Shown piece after piece: positions 1-52,645 of a DNA stretch of 64,000 bases. Location: assembly GCA_001783335.1 (NCBI GenBank), contig MFLU01000010.1, forward strand, positions 30,122 through 94,121, read 5' to 3'. The notes beneath the pieces were generated by a model. The model did no database searches and was not told where the DNA came from. It worked only from the letters and a program-made list of their open reading frames with translations. A program made the position numbers and the translations under genes. The stretch comes from Candidatus Kaiserbacteria bacterium RIFCSPLOWO2_01_FULL_50_24 (GTDB taxonomy: Bacteria; Patescibacteriota; Minisyncoccia; Phycocordibacterales; UBA2100). Positions within the stretch are counted from its first letter, which is position 1. Each line of letters opens with the position of its first letter.

Positions 1-551
1 AGAAATTTATAACGCAAGCGACGGAGTATGAGGGATACTTGTATCCAGATACTTATTTTTTCCTTCCCAATGTAGATGAGGCGGTGGTGATACGCACTAT
101 GCAGCAGAATTTTGATGCTCAAACCGCGACAATCGCGAGCGAAGTGGAGGCGTTCGGCGAGCCATTTTCAGACATTGTCATTATGGCGTCACTTTTGGAG
201 CGAGAGGCGAATAACACCGAGGATAGAAGAAAAATAGCGGGTGTGCTGTGGAATCGCGTGGAGCGCGACATGCCGCTTCAGGTAGACGCGGTGTTTCTCT
301 ACACGCTCGGCAGGACCACGTTTGAGCTCACCACAGAGGATCTCGCATCCGATTCTCCGTACAACACCTATCGGTATAAAGGATTTCCGCCGACGCCGAT
401 AGGAAGCCCGTCGCTTGATTCGCTCCGCGCGGCGGTAATGCCTGAAAATCACGATTATTTGTTTTATCTCGCCGACCGAAACCATGTGACGTATTACTCA
501 CGCACGTATGAGGAGCATTTGCGGAAGAAAGCGATGTACCTGGGAAGTTAA
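1..551 (+). CDS. mltG: Endolytic murein transglycosylase MltG/YceG, C-terminal part (the 5' end lies outside the window)
   Basis: The frame is open from the window edge. The translation (EGYLYPDTYFF ... GVLWNRV ... YNTYRYKGFPPTPIGSPSLDSLRAA) carries the YceG/MltG family signature. Confidence 0.8.
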   Translation, partial: KFITQATEYEGYLYPDTYFFLPNVDEAVVIRTMQQNFDAQTATIASEVEAFGEPFSDIVIMASLLEREANNTEDRRKIAGVLWNRVERDMPLQVDAVFLYTLGRTTFELTTEDLASDSPYNTYRYKGFPPTPIGSPSLDSLRAAVMPENHDYLFYLADRNHVTYYSRTYEEHLRKKAMYLGS

Positions 552-587
552 TGTAAAAATAAAATATCACGAAGAAATCCACACAGT

Positions 588-766
588 TTAAATCCAAATT
601 TCAAAGTTCAAATGTCAAATAAAATCCAAAACTTAAATATCAAATACAACCCGCGTCGCAAAGAGTGGGATGCGTTTAGTCATTTGAATTTTGGGCTTTG
701 TTTGACCTTTGGATTTTGACATTTGAAATTACTTTTAATTTCGGGCTTTGAAATTTGGATTTACTT
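588..766. repeat. Family-A MITE-like foldback element (arms built from aaatccaaat / caaagttcaaa / aaaatccaaa units)
   Basis: A second copy at 60979-61122 has a nearly identical 55-nt left arm. The right arm is an imperfect reverse complement of the left. Confidence 0.75.
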
Positions 767-963
767 AAGGATATCCACACCCCCATCTTGCGTCATCGCC
801 AACACTTGGCATATTCTTACTCTTGGTGAGGGTGGAGCACCGGAAGAATGACTCCCACGACCATCAGGCTTCGGCCTTCGGCGTGCGACCCTCCCTTCCA
901 AACATCTGCCCTCACTGCTTCTCTTCGAGCTCGCACCTCGCGGGCTCTTTTGTTTCTAAAAAA

Positions 964-6418: not shown

Positions 6419-7009
6419 ATGTTAAATGCATACACTGAAATGAAAAAAGTTCGCGATGAGGTATTCTCGCTTGACGGCGAATTGGCGGAATATAGAAAAA
6501 AGAATAATTATTTTGCGGTTTTGGGAGAGGGGAGCCACGATGCGAACATTATGTTTATCGGCGAGGCACCTGGTAGAAATGAGGCAAAAACCGGCCGGCC
6601 GTTTTGTGGCGCGGCCGGGCGTATCTTGGACGACCTTCTCCTTTCCATCAACGTGCCGCGCGAGGATGTGTATATTACCAACATTGTGAAAGACAGGCCG
6701 CCGGAAAATCGCGACCCGCTACCGTCTGAAATTGAACTCTATGCGCCGTTTCTAGACCGTCAAATTGATATCATCAAGCCGAAAATACTTGCAACGCTTG
6801 GCAGATTTTCCATGGAATATATCATGCGGAAGTTTGAGCTCGTGTTTGAGCTGGAATCCATCAGCGCGGCCCACGGCAAAATGTACGATGCCTTTGCCTC
6901 GTATGGCGCGATTAAAATCATTCCTCTCTACCACCCCGCCGCCGCCATCTATAATCAGTCTCTCAAAGAAACCCTCAAAAAGGACTTCCAAGAGCTTAAA
7001 ACCCCGTAA
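6419..7009 (+). CDS. Uracil-DNA glycosylase, family 4
   Basis: It carries the GEAPGRNEAKTGRPFCGAAGRILD motif and a C-terminal HPAA segment. Confidence 0.85.
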   Translation: MLNAYTEMKKVRDEVFSLDGELAEYRKKNNYFAVLGEGSHDANIMFIGEAPGRNEAKTGRPFCGAAGRILDDLLLSINVPREDVYITNIVKDRPPENRDPLPSEIELYAPFLDRQIDIIKPKILATLGRFSMEYIMRKFELVFELESISAAHGKMYDAFASYGAIKIIPLYHPAAAIYNQSLKETLKKDFQELKTP

Positions 7010-7766
7010 AACCCTAGAGGCGTCGCCTCTAGGATTTATCAGAACGAACTCTCAGTCTCCGTGTAATAGGTAGCGGCATCACGCAAGACAGATGAAAGTT
7101 TTGGAAGACCGTCTGCCAATATGTTGTATACATTGTCGTCTAATATCGCTCGTTCTACGCGTTCCAATCCGCAGTAGTCCGGCATGCTGGAAAAAGGATA
7201 ATTTAAAAGTTTGTGTTCCAGATTTTTAAAATCAGATACTTTTCCATGTTTCCAATTAGGTTCAAACTTTTCCGCCACATTCAGATGAATATATTGAAGA
7301 ACATGACGTAGGTACGTTTCGTCGTCAACATGCTTGGAACGAAACGGCTTCACAAATATATTGCCGACGCGCGAGCGTTTTTCATTAAAATACATTGCAT
7401 ATCCGGTTCCAAGTTTTTGCATGAATTTGGATATGCCTCTGTCTTCGATCTCTTGCATTAAAATATGGTAGTGGTTTGGCATGAGGGAGTATCCGCCAAT
7501 GGCGACGATATTTTGTTCACGAGGCAGTTGTAAGATATCGTGATGGGGCATATGTTGAAAATTTCCGCGAACAATTGGTTTCGTATCGTTCGACAAGTAC
7601 ATTAGCTCGACGAATCTGTTGCAGTCATCCCCGGTTTCAAAAGTGGTACGTTTGTCAATGCCACGATCAAAGCAGTGATACCACTCGTTGATGGCGAAAG
7701 GAGTGCGTCTATATCCCATACTAACCAACCATAACATAATCCTAGAGGCGTTGCCTCTAGGATTAC
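7008..7766 (-). mobile_element. REP-RAYT-REP unit: an IS200/IS605-like HUH (Y1) transposase gene flanked on both sides by the palindrome cctagaggcg(t/c)(c/t)gcctctagg
   Basis: REP copies lie at 7013-7033 and 7741-7761, a few nt outside the stop (7039) and start (7737) of the transposase ORF. A third copy is at 9657-9677. Confidence 0.65.
7039..7737 (-). CDS. REP-associated tyrosine transposase (RAYT) / IS200-like Y1 transposase
   Basis: The HUH motif LMPNHYHILM and a downstream catalytic-Tyr region (RHVLQYIHLNVAEK) match the Y1_Tnp family. The gene is flanked by REP palindromes. Confidence 0.65.
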   Translation of the reverse strand: MLWLVSMGYRRTPFAINEWYHCFDRGIDKRTTFETGDDCNRFVELMYLSNDTKPIVRGNFQHMPHHDILQLPREQNIVAIGGYSLMPNHYHILMQEIEDRGISKFMQKLGTGYAMYFNEKRSRVGNIFVKPFRSKHVDDETYLRHVLQYIHLNVAEKFEPNWKHGKVSDFKNLEHKLLNYPFSSMPDYCGLERVERAILDDNVYNILADGLPKLSSVLRDAATYYTETESSF

Positions 7767-7871
7767 AGGATTATGCTTTCAACACGCCACACGCGTGGCG
7801 TATTCGGAATCGGGGTTGTATTTTGTGTGTTTTCCTATATAGTGCCGACAGAGAAGAAAGGGAGAAACGAA

Positions 7872-9641
7872 ATGACGGTTGAGGCAACTTGGATTAAGAC
7901 CAAATGGAATCTTGGACTTCTATACGATTCGCTGACGGACCCAAGAATAGAGGAAGATATATCAAAACACGAGCGTGCGTTTGAGGACTTTGAAAGGCGG
8001 TATCGGAACGACACGGCGTATCTTGGAGATGTGGTCGCACTATGTATAGCGCTCCCGGACTACGAGTCTCTCTGGCGCGTGGGTAATTACAAACCCTTAC
8101 GCTATCTGTCGTTTGTAAACACGCTTGATAGCACAAACGCAGAGTGCAAAGCGCTCCAGCAAAAAATCACAGAACGTTTGGTGCGTGCTGGGAATCGCAT
8201 TAAATTTTTCCCGCTATCACTTGGAAAAATTTCCAAAGAAGCACAGGAGGCGTTTCTTGCAAGGGAATTACTGGCGCCGTATCGGTATTGGTTATCAAAA
8301 CTTTTTGAGGAAGCGCGACACAAACTCACAGAGCCGGAAGAGAAAATTCTTGCACTGAAAGCAAATACGTCAAGCGGAATGTGGACTTCGGGCGTGAAAA
8401 ACACCCTCAACAAGCAGGTTATCACGTTTGATGGCACAGAAATTCCTCTCAATGAAGCTGAAGGTAAAGTGTCAACGATACACGATACCGAAAAGCGCCG
8501 CGCCTTGTGGAGTGCGGTCATAGAAGGGTACCAGCGATTAGGTGATTTTGCGGAAAGCGAAATTAACGCCGTGTTCACCGACAAGAAAATCAACGATGAA
8601 TTGCGTGGGTACAAGGAACCGTACGATGCGACAATCCTCGGATACGAAAACAAAAGAGAAAGCGTGCTGGCGCTCGTAAAAACGGTAACCGAGAATTTTT
8701 CGGTAAGCCAGCGATTCTTCGAGGTCAAGTGCCGCATGCTTGCATTGCCGGAATTGACATATGCCGATCGTGGCGTGTCTCCGGGCCGTCAGATGCGTAG
8801 TTACTCATTTACCGAGTCGGTGCGGATTACTGAAAATGCCCTTGACCGCGCAGATCCAAGGTACGGAAACATATTTAGGGATTATCTTCGACACGGACAG
8901 ATAGATGTGTTTCCGCACGCGAACAGAGCTAGTGGCGGATTCTGCGCGGGCACGATAGATCTGCCGACCTTCATTTTCTTGAATCATGCGGACAACTTGC
9001 GCTCCTTGTCTACGTTGGCGCATGAGGTGGGGCACGGCATCCACTATGAACGCTCAAAGGTCCAATCGCCCATGTATCAACAATTTACGATACCGGTCGC
9101 GGAAACGGCCAGCACATTCTTTGAGGGCCTCGCGTTTAACCGAGCGATGAAAGAGATGGATGCGAGTGAGAAAGCGATAGCGCTTCACGAGCGGCTGAAT
9201 GGTGAAATTGCAACCATTTTCCGACAAATCGCCTTCTTTAACTTTGAGGAAGAATTACATCGCGCGGTGCGGGAAGACGGTTGGGTTACCAAAGAGGAAA
9301 TCGCGCGGATGCTCAACAGGCACACGGGGGCCTACATGGGCCCCACGATGAAATTGCGGGACGAAGACGGCTATTTCTTCATCACCGTGCCGCACTTCCG
9401 CTATATGTTCTACGTGTATTCATATGCGTATGGTCAATTGATAAGTCGGGCTCTCGTGCGACGGGTCCAAAATGACTCTGCGTACATCAAGCAGGTAGAT
9501 CGGTTTCTCTCTGCTGGCGGAAGTCAAAAGCCCGAGCACATATTTGCCGACATCGGCATTGAAGTAAACGAGGAGTTTTTCCGCGAGGGCATCGCGGAAA
9601 TTGAAAAAGACCTCTCGGAACTTGAGCAACTGGTTGCGTAA
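7872..9641 (+). CDS. pepF: Oligoendopeptidase F (M3B family metallopeptidase)
   Basis: It has the HEVGHGIH zinc motif and PepF-like length. The start at 7872 has a GGGAG RBS and was preferred over the upstream ORF-track start. Confidence 0.85.
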   Translation: MTVEATWIKTKWNLGLLYDSLTDPRIEEDISKHERAFEDFERRYRNDTAYLGDVVALCIALPDYESLWRVGNYKPLRYLSFVNTLDSTNAECKALQQKITERLVRAGNRIKFFPLSLGKISKEAQEAFLARELLAPYRYWLSKLFEEARHKLTEPEEKILALKANTSSGMWTSGVKNTLNKQVITFDGTEIPLNEAEGKVSTIHDTEKRRALWSAVIEGYQRLGDFAESEINAVFTDKKINDELRGYKEPYDATILGYENKRESVLALVKTVTENFSVSQRFFEVKCRMLALPELTYADRGVSPGRQMRSYSFTESVRITENALDRADPRYGNIFRDYLRHGQIDVFPHANRASGGFCAGTIDLPTFIFLNHADNLRSLSTLAHEVGHGIHYERSKVQSPMYQQFTIPVAETASTFFEGLAFNRAMKEMDASEKAIALHERLNGEIATIFRQIAFFNFEEELHRAVREDGWVTKEEIARMLNRHTGAYMGPTMKLRDEDGYFFITVPHFRYMFYVYSYAYGQLISRALVRRVQNDSAYIKQVDRFLSAGGSQKPEHIFADIGIEVNEEFFREGIAEIEKDLSELEQLVA

Positions 9642-9656
9642 CGCGCATCCAAAAAC

Positions 9657-9677
9657 CCTAGAGGCGTCGCCTCTAGG
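9657..9677. repeat. Third copy of the REP palindrome cctagaggcgtcgcctctagg, downstream of pepF
   Basis: It matches the copy at 7013-7033 exactly. Confidence 0.9.
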
Positions 9678-9751
9678 ATTATGAGTGGTTTGACCGACTA
9701 TATTCTTCACCCTCGTGGCACACGCGCCGCGGGGGTGATATTCTTTGTGTT

Positions 9752-11572
9752 GTGCAGGTAAATGAAATACGAGAAAAATATTTGGCGTTTTTCAAAGCGC
9801 GGGGGCATGTAATAGTGTCATCGGCGTCACTGGTTCCAGAGGGAGACGCAACGACGCTTTTTACGGGGAACGGCATGCAGCCGATGGTTCCGTATCTCCT
9901 CGGAGCGTCGCATCCAAGCGGTACACGAATCGCCGACGTGCAAAAGTCGTTTCGAGCGGAAGATATTGCAGAAGTGGGGGACAATCGCCACACGACATTC
10001 TTTGAAATGCTGGGCAACTGGTCGTTCGGCGACTATTGGAAAAAAGAACAGCTCACATGGTGTTTTGAATTTTTGACCAAAGAGCTCGGATTTCCGAAAG
10101 AGCGCCTATGGGTCACCTGTTTTGAAGGTGATACGGAAAAAGGAATACCGAAAGACACGGAATCGGCGGAAATCTGGAAAGAATTGGGAATTCCCGAAGA
10201 TCACATACGTTTCTATGAAGCCAAGAATTGGTGGAGTCGCGCGGGTGCTCCTTCCGAAATGCCGGAAGGTGAGCCGGGCGGGCCGGACTCGGAGGTGTTT
10301 TATGAATTTACACAAGTAGCACATGATGCAAAATTTGGCGACGAGTGCCATCCGAATTGCGACTGCGGGCGGTTTCTTGAAATATGCAACTCGGTATTTA
10401 TGCAGTACGTGAAAATTGCTGGAGGCGGGTTTCAGCCGCTCCCGAAACAAAATGTTGATTTCGGAGGCGGACTGGAACGTATCGCGGCGGCTTCGGAAAA
10501 TAATCCGGATATATTCGTAACCGACGTGTTTATTGAGCCGATACGGCTTTTGGAGCACATGAGCGGAAAACATTATGTTGATTCTCGTTACGCGCGTAGC
10601 TTTCGCATTATTGCAGACCACGCGCGGGCGGTCACTTTCATACTGGCCGACGGCGTTCGGCCGTCCAATACCGAGCGCGGCTATGTGCTTCGCCGCCTTA
10701 TTCGCCGTGCGGCGCTTCACGCTTTGAAACTTGATTTTGTGGATAAAGACAAAGAGGATTCCGCGCTCGTGCGGTGTGCCACCATATATCTTGAAAAATA
10801 CAGGCAGGCATATCCGGAACTCGCTGGCGAAGAAATGTATGCTACGGTAACGAATGGGCTGTGGGAGGAGGAAAGAAATTTTGCAAAAACACTTACACGC
10901 GGCATGCGGGAGTTTGAGAAAATTGCCGCCGATGGGCATATCTCGGGCGAGCAGGCATTTCTCCTCACCACCACCTACGGCTTTCCGTTTGAAATGATGG
11001 CAGAGTTGGCGCATGAGCGCGCAATAGAGGTGGATGAGGTTGATTTTCAGAAACTCATGAAGGAACATCAAGGAACATCGCGTGCGGGTGCAGAGAAAAA
11101 ATTCAAGGGCGGGCTCGCGGATAGCTCGGAGCAAACGACGCGCCTCCACACCGCGCACCACCTTTTGCTCAAATCACTCCAGATGGTGCTCGGACCGCAC
11201 GTAAAACAGCGTGGGAGCAACATCACGCAAGAACGTTTGCGTATTGATTTCTCGCATGGAGAGAAAATGACAAAAGAGCAAATCGCAGAAGTGGAGCGTA
11301 TCGTGAACGAGAAAATCGCGGAGGCCTTGCCAGTTGTATGCACGGAGATGGCGCGCGAGGAGGCGGAACAACTTGGCGCGGAACATGAGTTCGGTGCGAA
11401 GTATACGGAGCGCGTTTCCGTGTATTCAGTCGGCCAACCAGACAACGTATTCTCCATAGAATTTTGCGGCGGGCCGCATGTAGCGAATACCGGCGGACTC
11501 GGTACATTCAAAATTTTGAAAGAGGAGGCCGTGGCGGCCGGTATACGCCGTATCAAGGCGACACTCGCGTAA
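9752..11572 (+). CDS. alaS: Alanyl-tRNA synthetase, short form (catalytic, tRNA-binding and editing domains, no C-Ala domain)
   Basis: It begins with a GTG start. The N-terminus (VNEIREKYLAFFKARGH...) is AlaRS-like, and the editing-domain motifs HTAHHLL and CGGPHV are present. At 606 aa the protein ends right after the editing domain. Confidence 0.9.
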   Translation: MQVNEIREKYLAFFKARGHVIVSSASLVPEGDATTLFTGNGMQPMVPYLLGASHPSGTRIADVQKSFRAEDIAEVGDNRHTTFFEMLGNWSFGDYWKKEQLTWCFEFLTKELGFPKERLWVTCFEGDTEKGIPKDTESAEIWKELGIPEDHIRFYEAKNWWSRAGAPSEMPEGEPGGPDSEVFYEFTQVAHDAKFGDECHPNCDCGRFLEICNSVFMQYVKIAGGGFQPLPKQNVDFGGGLERIAAASENNPDIFVTDVFIEPIRLLEHMSGKHYVDSRYARSFRIIADHARAVTFILADGVRPSNTERGYVLRRLIRRAALHALKLDFVDKDKEDSALVRCATIYLEKYRQAYPELAGEEMYATVTNGLWEEERNFAKTLTRGMREFEKIAADGHISGEQAFLLTTTYGFPFEMMAELAHERAIEVDEVDFQKLMKEHQGTSRAGAEKKFKGGLADSSEQTTRLHTAHHLLLKSLQMVLGPHVKQRGSNITQERLRIDFSHGEKMTKEQIAEVERIVNEKIAEALPVVCTEMAREEAEQLGAEHEFGAKYTERVSVYSVGQPDNVFSIEFCGGPHVANTGGLGTFKILKEEAVAAGIRRIKATLA

Positions 11573-42821: not shown

Positions 42822-43361
42822 CTATTCGCGCTTCTCCCCCGCCTCTAAATATACGGCCCCTAGTGCATTTTTAAGAACATCTAAAGATGTATATAATCGC
42901 TTTGATGCGCGTGTTTCGGGACCTCCAGAGAGCTCTATAGCCTCCTCTTGTGACACGAAGCGACATTCTTCTATTTCATCCTCACCGCATTTGACCTTGC
43001 GCTGCTCTTCTGGCATCACTTCCCCACCAAAAAATGTAAATTGAATGCGGTCACCAAACGAATCGTCTTTCGGCACGTAGTGAACACACAGTAACGACAG
43101 TTTTTTAAGCGTTAAGCCAGCCTCTTCCAATACCTCGCGTTTGCATGCGTCGTGTGGCGATTCGTCTGCATCAACCAAGCCGCCGGGCAAAGACCAATGC
43201 TTCTTATAGTGTGCTTTTACGAGTAGGAGCTTTCCATGCTCGTCAAAAATTATTGCGCCTGAGGAAATCGGCTTTTTGGGCAGCGTCTTGTAAAATTCAT
43301 TCGGCGGTAGAAATACACCCATCAGTGCATTGTACTCTTTAAAAAAAGAACGACCACCCAC
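42822..43361 (-). CDS. NUDIX hydrolase
   Basis: It has the Nudix box GGLVDADESPHDACKREVLEEAGL. Confidence 0.8.
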   Translation of the reverse strand: MGGRSFFKEYNALMGVFLPPNEFYKTLPKKPISSGAIIFDEHGKLLLVKAHYKKHWSLPGGLVDADESPHDACKREVLEEAGLTLKKLSLLCVHYVPKDDSFGDRIQFTFFGGEVMPEEQRKVKCGEDEIEECRFVSQEEAIELSGGPETRASKRLYTSLDVLKNALGAVYLEAGEKRE

Positions 43362-43756: not shown

Positions 43757-44263
43757 TCACCATCGCCCGCGCTCATTTCGCACACCTGCGCAGTATGCCT
43801 CTATTCTTCTACGATTCGCTGGAGACGTCGTATCCGGCAAGTTATCAAAAGCAAAAATGCCGCGCTGCATAATCTCCCCGTTAGGGACAAATTTTATACT
43901 TCCGTCGTAGTCATTCGTAAACAGCACTTGAACGATGTCGTGCTTTCCGAGCGCTCCCTCATACACACCCAGCTCACCGGTAAAGTTGTTTACTATATAA
44001 CCGGTTTCTTCGCGCACCTCACGCTTTCCAGCGGCTTCCGGTGACTCGCCCGCGTCAACCGCGCCACCGGGGAGAGTCCACACTCCAGGAGCAAACCAGT
44101 GCCGCACAAGCACAACTCTCCCATCTCGCTCCAAAATCACACGCACGCCGTGTATTTGTTCTTGCCCACCGAACCAGCGTAGAAGCACGTAACGCCCAGC
44201 GTGCGCAATAAACAAAATCGTTTGCGATATGAGTGCGCCAAGGCGCCTAAGTAGCCGCCGCAT
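43757..44263 (-). CDS. NUDIX hydrolase (second, divergent copy)
   Basis: It has the Nudix box GGAVDAGESPEAAGKREVREETGY. Confidence 0.75.
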   Translation of the reverse strand: MRRLLRRLGALISQTILFIAHAGRYVLLRWFGGQEQIHGVRVILERDGRVVLVRHWFAPGVWTLPGGAVDAGESPEAAGKREVREETGYIVNNFTGELGVYEGALGKHDIVQVLFTNDYDGSIKFVPNGEIMQRGIFAFDNLPDTTSPANRRRIEAYCAGVRNERGRW

Positions 44264-44314: not shown

Positions 44315-44908
44315 TTATTTTCTCCAAGGAATTTCGTACTGTGTAAACTCCGGCAGTAATTTTCTACTGTACAGAAGGCGCGAGATGACTTCCGCGTGCG
44401 AAAGCGCGCCCGTCTGCGCATTGTGCGGCGTGGGTTCCATTGGAATACCACAATACACAAGGATGGCGTCCAGGTCCAGCGCCGAGCGGCGATGCGCGGT
44501 TGGCGGCTGAAGCCCTCTTTGGATCATATGCGTGTAGCAAAGCGTGTGAGCGTCAATCGTTCTAAATGCAAACGGCCACTCGGTATGCCCCGCGCGCTCT
44601 GCCGCCGCACTCAAGAAATCTCGATCAAAAGAAACGTTTTGCCCGGCGAGTGTTCGCTCTTCCAATTTTTCCGACCACTGTAAAAATGCATGAATGGTAT
44701 CCGCCTCGCTCGGCTTCGCGCTATCAATAATCTGTTCACGCGTAAAGCCGTTCACATCAAGCGACTCTGAAGATATGTGTGCACCGTCCCACACGCGGCA
44801 CTCTTCGTAAAATCTATTGTCCGGGTGTGCGAAATCCAAAGCGCCAACACTCACAATGGAGTCGGTTTTCGGGTCCAGCCCGGAGGCCTCAACGTCTACG
44901 ACAAGCAT
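44315..44908 (-). CDS. DEDDh 3'-5' exonuclease (DnaQ/RNase T-like)
   Basis: Exo motifs are present: VVDVEASGLDP (motif I), GQNVSFDRDFL (motif II), and HNAQTGALSHAEV with H-x4-D (motif III). Confidence 0.8.
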   Translation of the reverse strand: MLVVDVEASGLDPKTDSIVSVGALDFAHPDNRFYEECRVWDGAHISSESLDVNGFTREQIIDSAKPSEADTIHAFLQWSEKLEERTLAGQNVSFDRDFLSAAAERAGHTEWPFAFRTIDAHTLCYTHMIQRGLQPPTAHRRSALDLDAILVYCGIPMEPTPHNAQTGALSHAEVISRLLYSRKLLPEFTQYEIPWRK

Positions 44909-45001
44909 AGCTTTTAGGTTTCAGTTATTAGCTTAATAGAAAACCATACATGTTATTTTCCCACACCTAGAAGCTAGAAGCTAGTACCTAGAAGCTATTC
45001 C
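44909..45001. repeat. Family-D intergenic repeat
   Basis: It ends with cctagaagctattc, like the copy at 15132-15240. Confidence 0.75.
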
Positions 45002-45360
45002 AGACCCTTACAATTCTTCGCCGGCCGATATCCCGCTTTTTGCGCCTCTTCCTCACTTTTGAACCACCGTTTATTCTGCTCCGTTATTTGTTTTGCGCCC
45101 GCGCACCACGGAAAATGATACGTGCTTCCATTCCGCGAACCAACCAAAAGTCCGCCCATGTTCATTGGTGGAAGCGCTTCCGCCGCTGTGGCATGTTGAA
45201 GTGACACCTGTGGACGCATTTCTTCTATCATGGAGAATCGCCCTAATCCGAACGACGCAAGCCCGACCAAAAGCACTACGAGCGGCACGCCCCATGTTCC
45301 AAGTATGTCATTCAAACGACTGGCGAATGAGGGAAACATTGCGATACTATATACCAACAT
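44995..45360 (-). CDS. Hypothetical membrane-anchored protein with a C-terminal Cys motif (YHFPWCAGAKQI...GYRPAKNC)
   Basis: It has an N-terminal TM segment and a short C-terminal domain with the conserved-looking Y-x-x-P-x-C ... GYRP-x-K-x-C pattern. Confidence 0.45.
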   Translation of the reverse strand: MLVYSIAMFPSFASRLNDILGTWGVPLVVLLVGLASFGLGRFSMIEEMRPQVSLQHATAAEALPPMNMGGLLVGSRNGSTYHFPWCAGAKQITEQNKRWFKSEEEAQKAGYRPAKNCKGLE

Positions 45361-49768: not shown

Positions 49769-52645
49769 CTAAGTTCTTAAAACAAAGTTTACAAGGCGAT
49801 TTGGAACGACGATTACTTTTACCACTTCCCTGCCCTGTAGTCGCGTGGCCACCACTTCACGAGCGGCGCGTTCGTGCTCGACTTTGTCTGCCCTCGTAGC
49901 GATGGTCACCTCGCCGCGCACCTTGCCATCTATCTGCACGGCAATGGTTACCGTTTCGTCTTTCAGAAACTTTTCATCATATTCCGGCCACTTTTGGAGA
50001 TGAATGGACCCTTTTCCGCCACATTGAGACCATAGCTCCTCCGCGACATGCGGCACAAATGGAGCAAGGAGTTTCAAGAATATTTCCCACTGTTTTTTTC
50101 CTATCGTTTTTTCTTTCTCTGCGGCATTCATAAAAATCATCAATTGACTTATTGCCGTATTGAATTTGAACGCCGCAATATCTTCCGTAATTTTCTTTAT
50201 TGTTCGGTGTAAAGATGTTTGCAGATTTGGATTTTCTGGAAGCTTAAAGCTAGAAGCTGGAAGCTGACCCCGTCGCCATATACGCTCCAAAAAACGGCGC
50301 ACGCCTATCAGACTCTCGGTTTTCCATGCAATCGTATTCTCAAATGGCCCCATGAACATTTCGTAAAGGCGTAGAGTATCAGCTCCGTAAAGCTTCACCA
50401 CGTCGTCGGGATCAATGGTGTTTTTGAAGCGCTTACTCATTTTTCGGCCGTCTTCGGCAAGCACAAGCCCGACAGTATGAAGCTGTATGAATGGTTCCAT
50501 CGTTGAGACGATGCCTATGTCGTGCAGAAATTTGTGCCAGAAACGGGCATATATGAGGTGTCTCGTTGCATGTTCCACGCCGCCCACATACACGTCAACC
50601 GGCAACCATTTTTGTATTTTGTTTTGAAGTTTGGTACTTAGAGATTGTTTGGAATTTGGTACTTGTGATTTGAGATTTTCGCTTATGCAATAAGCGATGT
50701 GGTACCAGCTTGAGCCCGCCCACTGCGGCATCGTATTCGTTTCGCGCCTCCCTTTCCCGCCGCACGTCGGACACTTCGTATTCACCCACTTCGTGATATT
50801 GGCAAGCGGTGATTCACCGGTGCCGGACGGCGCATACGATTTCACTTCCGGCAATATAACTGGCAGATATTTTTCCGACACCGGCACCACGCCGCATTTT
50901 TCGCAATGAATCATGGGGATCGGCTCACCCCAGTATCGCTGGCGCGAAAAAATCCAATCACGCAATTTGTAGGTAGTTTTTGGTGTGCCGAAACGCGCAG
51001 TTATTTTTTTTCTCGCCTCCGCACTATCCGTACCGCTAAACTCGCCCGAATCAATGAGAATACCCTCGCCCATATATGCATCCATGCCAGAAAATATGCG
51101 TTCAGTAATGATCTGTGCTTCAGAATGTTGAAACCGTGTTTTAGTGAGGTCACGGGCGGGTATCCACACCACCTCATGCTTCTCCGCTTCTTTTGGATCA
51201 ATCTTCTCGCGTGCATCGCTTGCAAGCTCAAAAAGCAATAGAGAATTACGTGCAACGCGATTGACCCCCTTGTGCGCCGCATAGAATTCCGCCTGCGCAT
51301 CGCCACCAAGTTTGCGCACAAATCGCACATCGGTGTATCCGGTTTCCTCGGCTATCTCGCGCCGCGCCGACTCGACAACGTCTTCCCCATTCTCCACGCC
51401 GCCCGTAACATACGTGATCCACGGTTGTTTTTTCCAGCGGAGCGTCAGATAGCGATCGGTTTTCGGATCGTACACAATGTTGATCGTTGCACGCCGATGC
51501 ACCACTTCCTTGTTCGGTTGATGCGGATTGGTCGGATCCGGCAGATGCGGCATGATAACGTCGCGTATGGAAATATTGTATTTTTTAGCAAACTCAAAAT
51601 CGCGCTCGTCGTGCGCCGGAACCGCCATAATGGCACCTGTTCCTACACCCGCCAGCACATAGTCTGCGACAAATATCGGTATTTCTTCTTTCGTCGCCGG
51701 ATTAACTGCCCTTATTCCTTCAAGTAGAACTCCCGTCTTTTCCTTATGTTCCTGCCGTTCCAGATCAGACTTTTTTGCTGCAGCTTTTATATAATCCTCC
51801 ACCTCATCTGAATTTACGCAAGTCTGACTTGCGTAAATAGACTGTACGAGCGTATGCTCCGGTGCGAGTGTAAGATATGTCGCTCCAAACAGTGTGTCGG
51901 GTCTCGTTGTAAAAACCTCTATTTGAAATTTGGATTTTAAAATTTGAAATTTTATCAGTGCGCCCTCGGATTTTCCGATCCAATTTCTCTGCAGTTCTTT
52001 TATGTACTCCGGCCACGGCAGAGTGTCGAGGTCGGCAAGCAGTCGGTCGGCGTAGTCGGTAATGCGTAGAACCCATTGCGGCAAGCGTTTTTGCTCCACA
52101 ACCGTGCCGCAGCGCTCGCACGCATTTCCTTCCAGATCTTCATTTGCAAGCCCCGTCTTGCACGACGGACACCAGTTGATCGGCTCATCAGACTGATACG
52201 CGAGGCCTTTTTTAAAAAGCTGGAGAAAGATCCACTGCGTCCACTTGTAGTATTCCGGGTCGGTAGTGTTTATTTCGCGGTCCCAATCGTAGTCAAAACC
52301 TATATGCGAGAGCTGTTCCTTAAAGCGCGCGATGTTTTTCTTCACCGCCACGCGCGGATGCACTTTATTTTGGAGCGCATAGTTCTCCGCCGGAAGACCG
52401 AATGCATCCCACCCCATTGGGTGTAGCACCGATCTTCCGCGCATACGCTGAAATCGCGAGTAAATATCGCTCGCGATGTAGCCCTTGGGATGCCCCACGT
52501 GGAGCCCCTCTCCCGAGGGATACGGAAACATATCAAGTACATAGCACTTCTTTTTTCCTTTTTTTTCAGTGGAGCGGTATACTTTTTTCTTCGCCCATTG
52601 CAGTTGCCATTTTCGCTCAATAGATTTGTGATCGTATCGCTTCAT
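49769..52645 (-). CDS. leuS: Leucyl-tRNA synthetase carrying an inserted Nudix domain (about aa 365-520) and two repeat-derived low-complexity inserts
   Basis: It has HVGH (HIGH), KMSKR, the editing-domain motif TTRPDT and a LeuRS C-terminus. The insertion after the editing domain contains a perfect Nudix box GGVENGEDVVESARREIAEETGY. Confidence 0.95.
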   Translation of the reverse strand: MKRYDHKSIERKWQLQWAKKKVYRSTEKKGKKKCYVLDMFPYPSGEGLHVGHPKGYIASDIYSRFQRMRGRSVLHPMGWDAFGLPAENYALQNKVHPRVAVKKNIARFKEQLSHIGFDYDWDREINTTDPEYYKWTQWIFLQLFKKGLAYQSDEPINWCPSCKTGLANEDLEGNACERCGTVVEQKRLPQWVLRITDYADRLLADLDTLPWPEYIKELQRNWIGKSEGALIKFQILKSKFQIEVFTTRPDTLFGATYLTLAPEHTLVQSIYASQTCVNSDEVEDYIKAAAKKSDLERQEHKEKTGVLLEGIRAVNPATKEEIPIFVADYVLAGVGTGAIMAVPAHDERDFEFAKKYNISIRDVIMPHLPDPTNPHQPNKEVVHRRATINIVYDPKTDRYLTLRWKKQPWITYVTGGVENGEDVVESARREIAEETGYTDVRFVRKLGGDAQAEFYAAHKGVNRVARNSLLLFELASDAREKIDPKEAEKHEVVWIPARDLTKTRFQHSEAQIITERIFSGMDAYMGEGILIDSGEFSGTDSAEARKKITARFGTPKTTYKLRDWIFSRQRYWGEPIPMIHCEKCGVVPVSEKYLPVILPEVKSYAPSGTGESPLANITKWVNTKCPTCGGKGRRETNTMPQWAGSSWYHIAYCISENLKSQVPNSKQSLSTKLQNKIQKWLPVDVYVGGVEHATRHLIYARFWHKFLHDIGIVSTMEPFIQLHTVGLVLAEDGRKMSKRFKNTIDPDDVVKLYGADTLRLYEMFMGPFENTIAWKTESLIGVRRFLERIWRRGQLPASSFKLPENPNLQTSLHRTIKKITEDIAAFKFNTAISQLMIFMNAAEKEKTIGKKQWEIFLKLLAPFVPHVAEELWSQCGGKGSIHLQKWPEYDEKFLKDETVTIAVQIDGKVRGEVTIATRADKVEHERAAREVVATRLQGREVVKVIVVPNRLVNFVLRT

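Follow-up and report, generated by a model that had tools for sequence, protein, structure and literature searches.

Aminoacyl-tRNA synthetases (aaRSs) are among the best-studied enzymes, and catalytic add-on domains in them have been discussed mostly for eukaryotes. The subject of the present analysis is the leuS gene, encoding a bacterial-type leucyl-tRNA synthetase (LeuRS), in a stretch of 64,000 nucleotides from the metagenome-assembled genome (MAG) of Candidatus Kaiserbacteria bacterium RIFCSPLOWO2_01_FULL_50_24 (contig MFLU01000010.1; this whole stretch is referred to below as the window), and the Nudix hydrolase domain that is inserted in its product. The closest described systems are the bacterial LeuRS of Thermus thermophilus (1H3N/2BTE) and Escherichia coli (4AQ7/4ARC), which have the catalytic core, the Zn-binding module, the motifs of the CP1 editing domain and the anticodon-binding and C-terminal domains in common with the window LeuRS, whereas the latter adds a Nudix domain of about 160 residues in a loop of CP1 (at positions 366/376 of the Thermus enzyme) and has a short linker instead of the leucine-specific domain. 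The leucine-specific domain is also missing, with a short linker in its place, in the LeuRS of Mycoplasma mobile (GKDG) and Bacillus subtilis (PMC3643597); the M. mobile enzyme resembles the window LeuRS in this respect, the linker of the latter containing AEDG, but is without CP1, which in the window LeuRS is present and enlarged. Small-molecule enzyme domains within class Ia synthetases are further represented by the IleRS with an N-acetyltransferase domain (NCBIfam NF040702) and by an IleRS-like protein with a His_Phos_1 domain at the locus L001 described below, but in both cases the host, the inserted fold and the site are different and no Nudix domain is involved.

In the literature on Nudix proteins and on LeuRS or aaRSs in the Candidate Phyla Radiation, Patescibacteria and Parcubacteria, no description of a Nudix domain inside LeuRS or prolyl-tRNA synthetase (ProRS) was found, most subscription journals lying outside the coverage of that search, and a comprehensive review of the Nudix clan is without mention of synthetase fusions (PMC5389931). 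Synthetases with added domains are already known, and the location of a Nudix domain inside LeuRS and ProRS appears to be the new part. Sequences of LeuRS containing Nudix are public, annotated simply as 'leucine--tRNA ligase'.

Identity of the inserted domain and its host protein

The Pfam model for NUDIX (PF00293) matched residues 383-513 of the window LeuRS with 50.2 bits against a gathering score of 21.1 (E = 3.4e-13), and 55 bits were obtained against the same gathering score when the insert alone (window positions 51088-51553) was used. The structure predicted for the insert was a Nudix fold with a predicted local distance difference test score (pLDDT) of 94.4, for which all the top fold matches were Nudix proteins. 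Together with the reading frame, which is uninterrupted over the whole gene including the whole insert, the family match and the model bear out the claim of an earlier note on this DNA that a complete Nudix domain lies in frame within LeuRS; the box regarded there as a textbook Nudix box, GGVENGEDVVESARREIAEETGY, is indeed an exact fit to the consensus GX5EX7REUXEEXGU.

Regarding the host protein, the window LeuRS scored 1006.7 bits with the equivalog hidden Markov model (HMM) for bacterial LeuRS (TIGR00396, leuS_bact; trusted cut-off 548.4), matched T. thermophilus LeuRS with E = 4e-220 in phmmer, and shows 100% identity to a protein of Candidatus Kaiserbacteria bacterium RIFCSPHIGHO2_01_FULL_50_13 annotated as 'leucine--tRNA ligase', identical proteins being found on 13 contigs from several sources. 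An AlphaFold2 model of the full-length protein had a mean pLDDT of 87.1 and a predicted template modelling score of 0.79, was confident across both insert junctions, and gave target-normalised template modelling scores of 0.79-0.83 with LeuRS-tRNA complexes of E. coli and Thermus. The HIGH and KMSKS motifs of the synthetic site and the editing site of CP1 are all intact, with motifs that vary little or not at all among 85 orthologues (Table 1), and by these features the window gene encodes a working bacterial LeuRS.

Position of the insert within the CP1 editing domain

Alignment with Thermus LeuRS paired residues 1-367 of the window protein (the query) with Tth 1-366 and residues 523-730 with Tth 376-579, leaving only Tth 367-375 in between, and about 155 window residues stand in place of about nine Thermus residues, in accordance with the gap of about 155 residues reported in the earlier note. 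The interval given there, 51088-51553, covers residues 365-519, but the full insert reaches to about residue 527 (window position 51065). The same note placed the insert behind the editing domain, ahead of the core; this placement had to be revised, since after deletion of the Nudix domain in silico the CP1 region of the window LeuRS aligned unbroken to Tth 223-433. The Nudix-deleted CP1 likewise matched the crystal constructs of editing domains from Mycobacterium tuberculosis (5AGR, positions 28-222 of 232) and E. coli (2AJG, positions 10-182 of 196), in neither case with a gap at the junction. Because CP1 aligns in one stretch to editing domains once the Nudix domain has been deleted, the insert is to be placed in a surface loop inside CP1 and not between CP1 and the core. 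The insertion point follows the catalytic Asp by about 20 residues, with about 40 residues of CP1 still to come, and the Pfam model of the editing domain (PF13603, 202.6 bits), broken by the insert at model position 146 of 185, accordingly matches in two stretches, the first of which comprises model positions 1-146.

Since the window derives from a MAG, an assembly chimera or mis-joined contig fusing a separate Nudix gene into leuS was considered, as it had been in the earlier note, and was ruled out. The reading frame is continuous, the GC content is uniform and remains level across both insert junctions, the structural model is confident at both junctions, the identical protein occurs on 13 contigs, and more than 100 independent, divergent sequences have identical junctions. 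An artefact is refuted by these independent occurrences, and its probability is considered negligible.

Conservation of the Nudix domain

Among 86 orthologues of standard length, the box residues G415 and G416 and the metal-binding E430 and E434 are found in all 86 and E433, also metal-binding, in 83, while position 421 is occupied by E in 76 and by Q in nine, and position 429 by R in 77. A variant box, GG.E.GQT.E.AA..E..EE, recurs in which the E421/R429 pair is gone and three glutamates are kept; copies with this box form a paralogue lineage of their own, whichever LeuRS site they occupy. Outside the box, the signature residues R384, the aromatic residues at 454/455, K459, N462, R463, E486 and W494 (Table 1) are common to the free-standing homologues too, and the length of the insert is confined to 154-172 residues among orthologues. 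Selection was gauged by region-wise identity and not by the ratio of nonsynonymous to synonymous substitutions, because synonymous sites are saturated at about 60% amino-acid identity. The insert had a mean pairwise identity of 0.40, close to that of the anticodon-binding/C-terminal region (0.45); the first part of CP1 reached 0.62 and the catalytic core 0.74-0.76. This pattern of conservation indicates that the Nudix domain is kept by selection as an enzyme, and the domain is probably catalytically active.

An orthologue without the Nudix domain

A full-length LeuRS without the domain, P0082, is encoded at locus L084 in a syntenic position, with the gene order LeuRS, convergent CysRS, S41 peptidase and L9 as in the window. 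In its core it is closer to the window LeuRS than any other relative, with two aligned blocks of 77% and 68% identity, and at the junction (...VRHVV-ESTESS-ILSNSG...) it has six residues where the window LeuRS has about 160. Regarding the gene model of this locus (ENA ERZ4903137 k141_1857067, 129-2495), the gene caller began at an internal Met, and the open reading frame (ORF) is open from nucleotide 129 and includes a normal N-terminus. Because this syntenic orthologue has a six-residue loop instead, the Nudix domain is evidently dispensable for LeuRS and for its fold. A secondary loss of the domain in P0082 is probable, because nearly all other relatives carry it. The locus represents a natural deletion control for the Nudix domain.

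Distribution of the subfamily in Patescibacteria

The LeuRS relatives examined were the 120 best among 5.8 billion clustered proteins, and this Nudix domain is present in 119 of them; where names are given, these are Parcubacteria, Minisyncoccota, Kaiserbacteria or similar. A genome scan covering one genome per species (GTDB), with a nine-sequence alignment as the query, yielded at least 167 confirmed relatives of the Nudix domain, the organism labels of which cover many Patescibacteria lineages. In the best 80 of these loci the domain lies inside a LeuRS ORF in 75 and is free-standing in five, and the copy at query positions 365-527 (site B) starts about 28 residues after the AHD motif. Judged by both surveys, the Nudix domain inside LeuRS is the standard LeuRS architecture of Patescibacteria. 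The earlier note, which had suggested a survey of related genomes, took the architecture to be possibly unusual; this holds relative to model organisms, but not within Patescibacteria, where the same insertion is found in 119 of the 120 closest relatives and in 75 of the 80 best loci.

In an exhaustive profile search of 1.84 billion cluster representatives, 159 clusters reached E<=1e-30 and 6617 reached E<=1e-3, which marks the subfamily as small and sharply bounded. Of the best 150 cluster representatives, 112 are LeuRS, complete or fragmentary, and 27 are short proteins in which LeuRS sequence is absent. As judged from these matches, the Nudix domain of the window belongs to a small subfamily that occurs mainly in Patescibacteria and mostly inside LeuRS. 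Free-standing Nudix proteins of Patescibacteria (P0001-P0011, about 161 aa, one of them named 'NUDIX hydrolase [Patescibacteria group bacterium]') are members of the same subfamily with the same box and signature residues, and have 38-43% identity to the insert when aligned over full length and 40-48% in the best local alignment; unlike the insert they are separate genes and form a sequence group of their own, with an identity of 0.49 within the group and 0.35 to the embedded copies.

Several of the loci with a LeuRS of the Patescibacteria type containing Nudix carry odd MAG labels, namely Gammaproteobacteria, Bacilli, Ruminococcus, Burkholderiales, Bdellovibrionales and Woesearchaeota (L029, L032, L036, L037, L038, L047, L049, L054, L057, L062, L067, L069, L072, L074, L079 and L083). 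These are likely to be mis-binned or mislabelled contigs, lateral transfer being the other possibility.

Additional Nudix copies and other domains inserted in synthetases

The number of copies of this Nudix domain in the LeuRS of the relatives ranges from one to three, three being found in P0016, P0018, P0021, P0022, P0025, P0031, P0047, P0052, P0055, P0080 and P0110 and two in 13 others. One or two tandem copies are located before CP1 (query positions ~207-209, site A), besides or instead of the copy at site B, and the second tandem copy, a member of the separate paralogue lineage, usually has the variant box (E to Q, R to A/M/T/S).

Domains of other families are also inserted in these LeuRS, and at least six distinct insertion sites were found in the LeuRS family (Table 1), sites being given in window-query coordinates and Pfam families being assigned from representative members. 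The families detected were PF06821 and PF00561 (serine or alpha/beta hydrolase), PF13419 (HAD phosphatase), PF04480 (DUF559, Vsr-like endonuclease) and PF04266 (ASCH). Inserts at positions ~235-242 occur in P0025, P0047, P0051, P0062 and others as well as in L038 and L064, those at ~584-594 in L011 and L047, and those at ~616-628 in L013, P0031 and P0052, with P0076, L078 and L052 providing further LeuRS with such inserts. A complete Ham1/ITPase domain (PF01725) was detected in the LeuRS of L050 (ORF residues ~856-1065, 203.6 bits) and L082 (~832-1065). The inserts of about 127-130 aa in the LeuRS of L014 (ORF residues ~252-381) and P0115 (~778-904) had no Pfam match; by eye, the P0115 insert is like the ASCH inserts (VDGVKTVETR).

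The same Nudix subfamily is also inserted cleanly in a class II synthetase, ProRS, between the anticodon-binding and C-terminal domains, in five clusters with lengths of 641-674 aa (P0262, P0285-P0288; loci L085 5593-7524 and L086 3720-5744). The closest ProRS relatives of these proteins, of about 485 aa, are without Nudix and, where named, are DPANN archaea (Nanoarchaeota or Woesearchaeota), and the gene context of the ProRS with Nudix favours neither archaeal nor bacterial hosts; the ProRS Nudix is possibly an independent recruitment, perhaps across domains of life. A Nudix gene and the genes of an AAA_18 kinase and of MazG surround one of the ProRS genes with Nudix, and one has the gene of a tRNA_bind protein directly upstream. 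Regarding the free-standing homologues, P0008 is encoded at locus L001 between ArgRS and IleRS-like genes, in a cluster with four more Nudix genes, a dUTPase, a thymidylate kinase, a HAD protein and a metallo-beta-lactamase-fold protein. The IleRS-like synthetase of this locus (6969-10466; Patescibacteria MAG GCA_040384045.1), of 1165 aa, has the His_Phos_1 domain inserted in its catalytic domain.

Table 1. Features of the window LeuRS, with residue numbers of the 958-aa protein and window positions, and insertion sites in the LeuRS family in window-query coordinates (Tth, T. thermophilus LeuRS).
Feature	Residues	Window position	Strand	Remarks
leuS ORF		49769..52645	minus	958 aa, bacterial-type LeuRS
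HIGH motif of synthetic site, HVGH	49-52	52490..52501	minus	H49, V50, G51, H52 invariant (85 orthologues)
CP1 editing domain, split by Nudix insert	~224-560	50966..51976	minus	PF13603; alignment continuous once Nudix removed
Threonine-rich editing-site motif TTRPDT	246-251	51893..51910	minus	T246, T247 invariant; R248, D250, T251 >=90% (85 orthologues)
AHD editing-site motif with conserved Asp	344-346	51608..51616	minus	H345, D346 invariant (85 orthologues)
Whole insert (linker, Nudix domain, linker)	365-527	51065..51553	minus	Replaces 6-9 residue loop of other LeuRS
Nudix fold proper, alpha/beta/alpha sandwich	381-519	51089..51505	minus	
R384, subfamily-specific	384	51494..51496	minus	84/85 orthologues; invariant in 37-sequence alignment A1
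Nudix box GGVENGEDVVESARREIAEETGY, metal-binding catalytic motif	415-437	51335..51403	minus	Exact fit to GX5EX7REUXEEXGU
Subfamily signature FYAAHKGVNR, X-loop region	454-463	51257..51286	minus	Aromatic pair, K459 invariant; N462, R463 near-invariant
E486 to W494, conserved in subfamily	486-494	51164..51190	minus	E486 80/85, W494 85/85
Linker LAEDGR in place of leucine-specific domain	729-734	50444..50461	minus	Query 730/735 = Tth 579/637
KMSKS motif, KMSKR	735-739	50429..50443	minus	Conserved in orthologues
LeuRS insertion site	~207-209			One or two Nudix copies
LeuRS insertion site, first CP1 hairpin	~235-242			Serine or alpha/beta hydrolase, DUF559, Nudix, ASCH, or ~130-aa insert
LeuRS insertion site	365-527			Nudix of the window
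LeuRS insertion site	~584-594			Serine hydrolase, or ~127-aa insert
LeuRS insertion site	~616-628			HAD phosphatase
LeuRS insertion site, anticodon-binding region	~790-808			Ham1/ITPase

Substrate class and proposed role of the Nudix domain

Comparisons of fold and of HMM scores singled out no substrate class for the insert, and both fold rankings mix all classes. The insert scored 13.2 bits with the MutT 8-oxo-dGTPase model (NF008044) against a cut-off of 148, 37 bits with the NudB dihydroneopterin triphosphate diphosphatase model (NF006961), its best NCBIfam Nudix match, against 103, and 23.6 bits with the models of RppH RNA pyrophosphohydrolase (NF001938 and related) against 116. Similarity to asymmetric Ap4A hydrolases did not rise above that to other Nudix classes, whether by sequence or by fold. 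The asymmetric ApnA hydrolases and RppH resemble the insert in the Nudix fold, the box and the aromatic nature of the X-loop residue, but are 14-21% identical to it, with family HMM scores far under the cut-off, and have a fixed Y in the X-loop where the subfamily has F or Y. The MutT/nudix family protein of Enterococcus faecalis (PDB 2AZW), 15-17% identical to the insert, is no guide to the substrate because the title of the entry gives no function. Regarding the aminoacyl-adenylate, which the earlier note had mentioned as a possible substrate, this compound is an acyl-phosphate and not a nucleoside diphosphate-X, and is for that reason not a canonical Nudix substrate.

As an accessory pyrophosphohydrolase, the domain may act on a free substrate of the nucleotide type, with LeuRS as its carrier and without being a step in leucylation or editing. 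This reading, to which we give an even chance, is proposed because the domain is dispensable, the LeuRS sites are intact, the classic house-cleaning domains Ham1 and HAD occur at unrelated LeuRS sites, and members of the subfamily are found in nucleotide-hygiene gene neighbourhoods. The surface loop of CP1 would bear a complete Nudix pyrophosphohydrolase as an extra lobe, the predicted substrate being either a (d)NTP that is non-canonical or in surplus or some other nucleoside-diphosphate-X compound; the activity would serve nucleotide-pool hygiene or salvage and would run parallel to leucylation and editing, with LeuRS as an essential and constitutively expressed carrier.

Alternatively, in a generalised form of the idea in the earlier note, the domain could clear Ap4A, Ap3A or Ap4N, formed from the aminoacyl-adenylate and ATP or other nucleotides, beside the enzyme that is their source, recycling the by-product to AMP and ATP and limiting the build-up of alarmones or Np4 caps, which is a real possibility, albeit on the unlikely side. 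In its favour, both hosts found are synthetases: the class I LeuRS, with the subfamily at three or more of its sites, and the class II ProRS. Adenylate formation and tRNA charging are the chemistry that they have in common, and one free-standing copy is encoded with ArgRS and IleRS genes on either side. Lupin Ap4A hydrolase was the best PDB profile match of the insert (E = 7e-8), and Rv2985, Ndx1, DR1025, aq_158, CT771 and RppH are ApnA-active Nudix proteins among the fold matches; no ApnA-hydrolase family model gave a score over threshold for the insert, however, and the mixing of classes in the fold rankings also weighs against this proposal. The X-loop can be read both ways: according to Dunn et al. 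(1999), as cited in the Nudix clan review (PMC5389931), a Tyr about 16-18 residues after the box marks ApnA hydrolases, and the subfamily has its invariant aromatic pair 17-18 residues after the box (F454-Y455 in the window), but F is found there as often as Y (position 454, F 54 and Y 31; position 455, F 55, Y 28 and C 2). Similarly, aaRSs make Ap4A and Nudix enzymes degrade it, but LeuRS is a low producer (PMC10148737), and the high producers named in that source, PheRS, LysRS and HisRS, were not found as hosts. A close orthologue, P0082, exists without the domain, and the Ham1, HAD and other LeuRS inserts have no evident link to Ap4A.

An action on RNA or on tRNA ends, in which the domain would take off 5' triphosphate or NAD or Np4 caps as RppH or Dcp2 do, or else a 3'-pyrophosphate or nucleotide adduct at the CCA end, seems quite improbable. 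RppH, Dcp2 and the decapping effector AvrM14, the last aligned over nearly the whole domain, are among the better sequence and fold matches, but the score of the insert with the RppH family is far from the cut-off given above and no basic RNA-binding extension is evident in it. Sites A and B lie on or beside CP1, which receives the tRNA 3' end; in ProRS, by contrast, the insertion between the anticodon-binding and C-terminal domains is away from the editing site. Some relatives contain inserted ASCH domains, which are RNA-associated, LeuRS and ProRS have tRNA as their other common substrate, and the tRNA_bind gene upstream of one ProRS with Nudix points in the same direction, but the 5' end of mature tRNA is already a monophosphate. 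Very doubtful, too, is a non-catalytic module, which would brace the structure, sense a ligand or offer an interaction surface to protein or tRNA and so tune the movement of CP1, in the manner of NrtR or the C-terminal domain of MutY. The Nudix clan has non-enzymatic members (PMC5389931), rotations of CP1 matter for function (PMC3643597), and the variant box is present in approximately 10% of the site-B copies and in most second site-A copies, as a lineage of its own. Against this, even the variant copies keep the three metal-binding glutamates almost without exception, the box of the window is perfect, the overall pattern is typical of active enzymes, and the domain can be missing without any other change in LeuRS, as in P0082.

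A wider proposal is that of a 'synthetase-associated Nudix' family, recruited independently into LeuRS and ProRS for a new activity coupled to aminoacylation, which might remove an ApnN or adenylate by-product in cis, or a lesion of the pyrophosphate or nucleotide type, or a modification installed by a toxin, from the tRNA acceptor end. This proposal is considered unlikely.

Genomic surroundings in the window

The neighbours of leuS in the window (CysRS, a DUF5671 membrane protein, YchF, S41 peptidase and L9) provided no functional link. Two free-standing Nudix genes of other subfamilies are present in the window on the minus strand, at 42822-43361 and 43757-44263, the products of which scored 76 and 69 bits with PF00293 but only 24-34 bits with the HMM of the LeuRS-type Nudix; they adjoin the gene of an RNase T-like exonuclease (44315-44908), next to which lies the gene of a small protein that has an Ada Zn-binding domain (44995-45360). 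Over the whole 64-kb window, Rfam gave no family at the gathering score and ARAGORN detected no tRNA or tmRNA gene.

Significance of LeuRS with embedded Nudix domains

Regarding annotation, the label 'leucine--tRNA ligase' hides the embedded Nudix domain. Patescibacteria, an entire phylum of bacteria whose genomes are very small, have incorporated between one and three Nudix hydrolases in LeuRS, and in some lineages the same enzyme also contains an ITPase, HAD phosphatase, serine hydrolase, ASCH or endonuclease-like domain. The hypothesis put forward for the role of the Nudix domain is directly testable, because nature offers a deletion control (L084) and free-standing versions. If the Nudix domain acted on a by-product of the synthetase or on tRNA, it would constitute a new form of quality control or signalling attached to translation, and if the family proved to be synthetase-associated, the LeuRS of Patescibacteria, with its Ham1, HAD, esterase-like and ASCH inserts, would be a multi-enzyme quality-control platform. 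If the domain is instead a piggy-backed house-cleaning enzyme, the Nudix-containing LeuRS would represent a clear case of reduced genomes packing accessory enzymes into essential genes.

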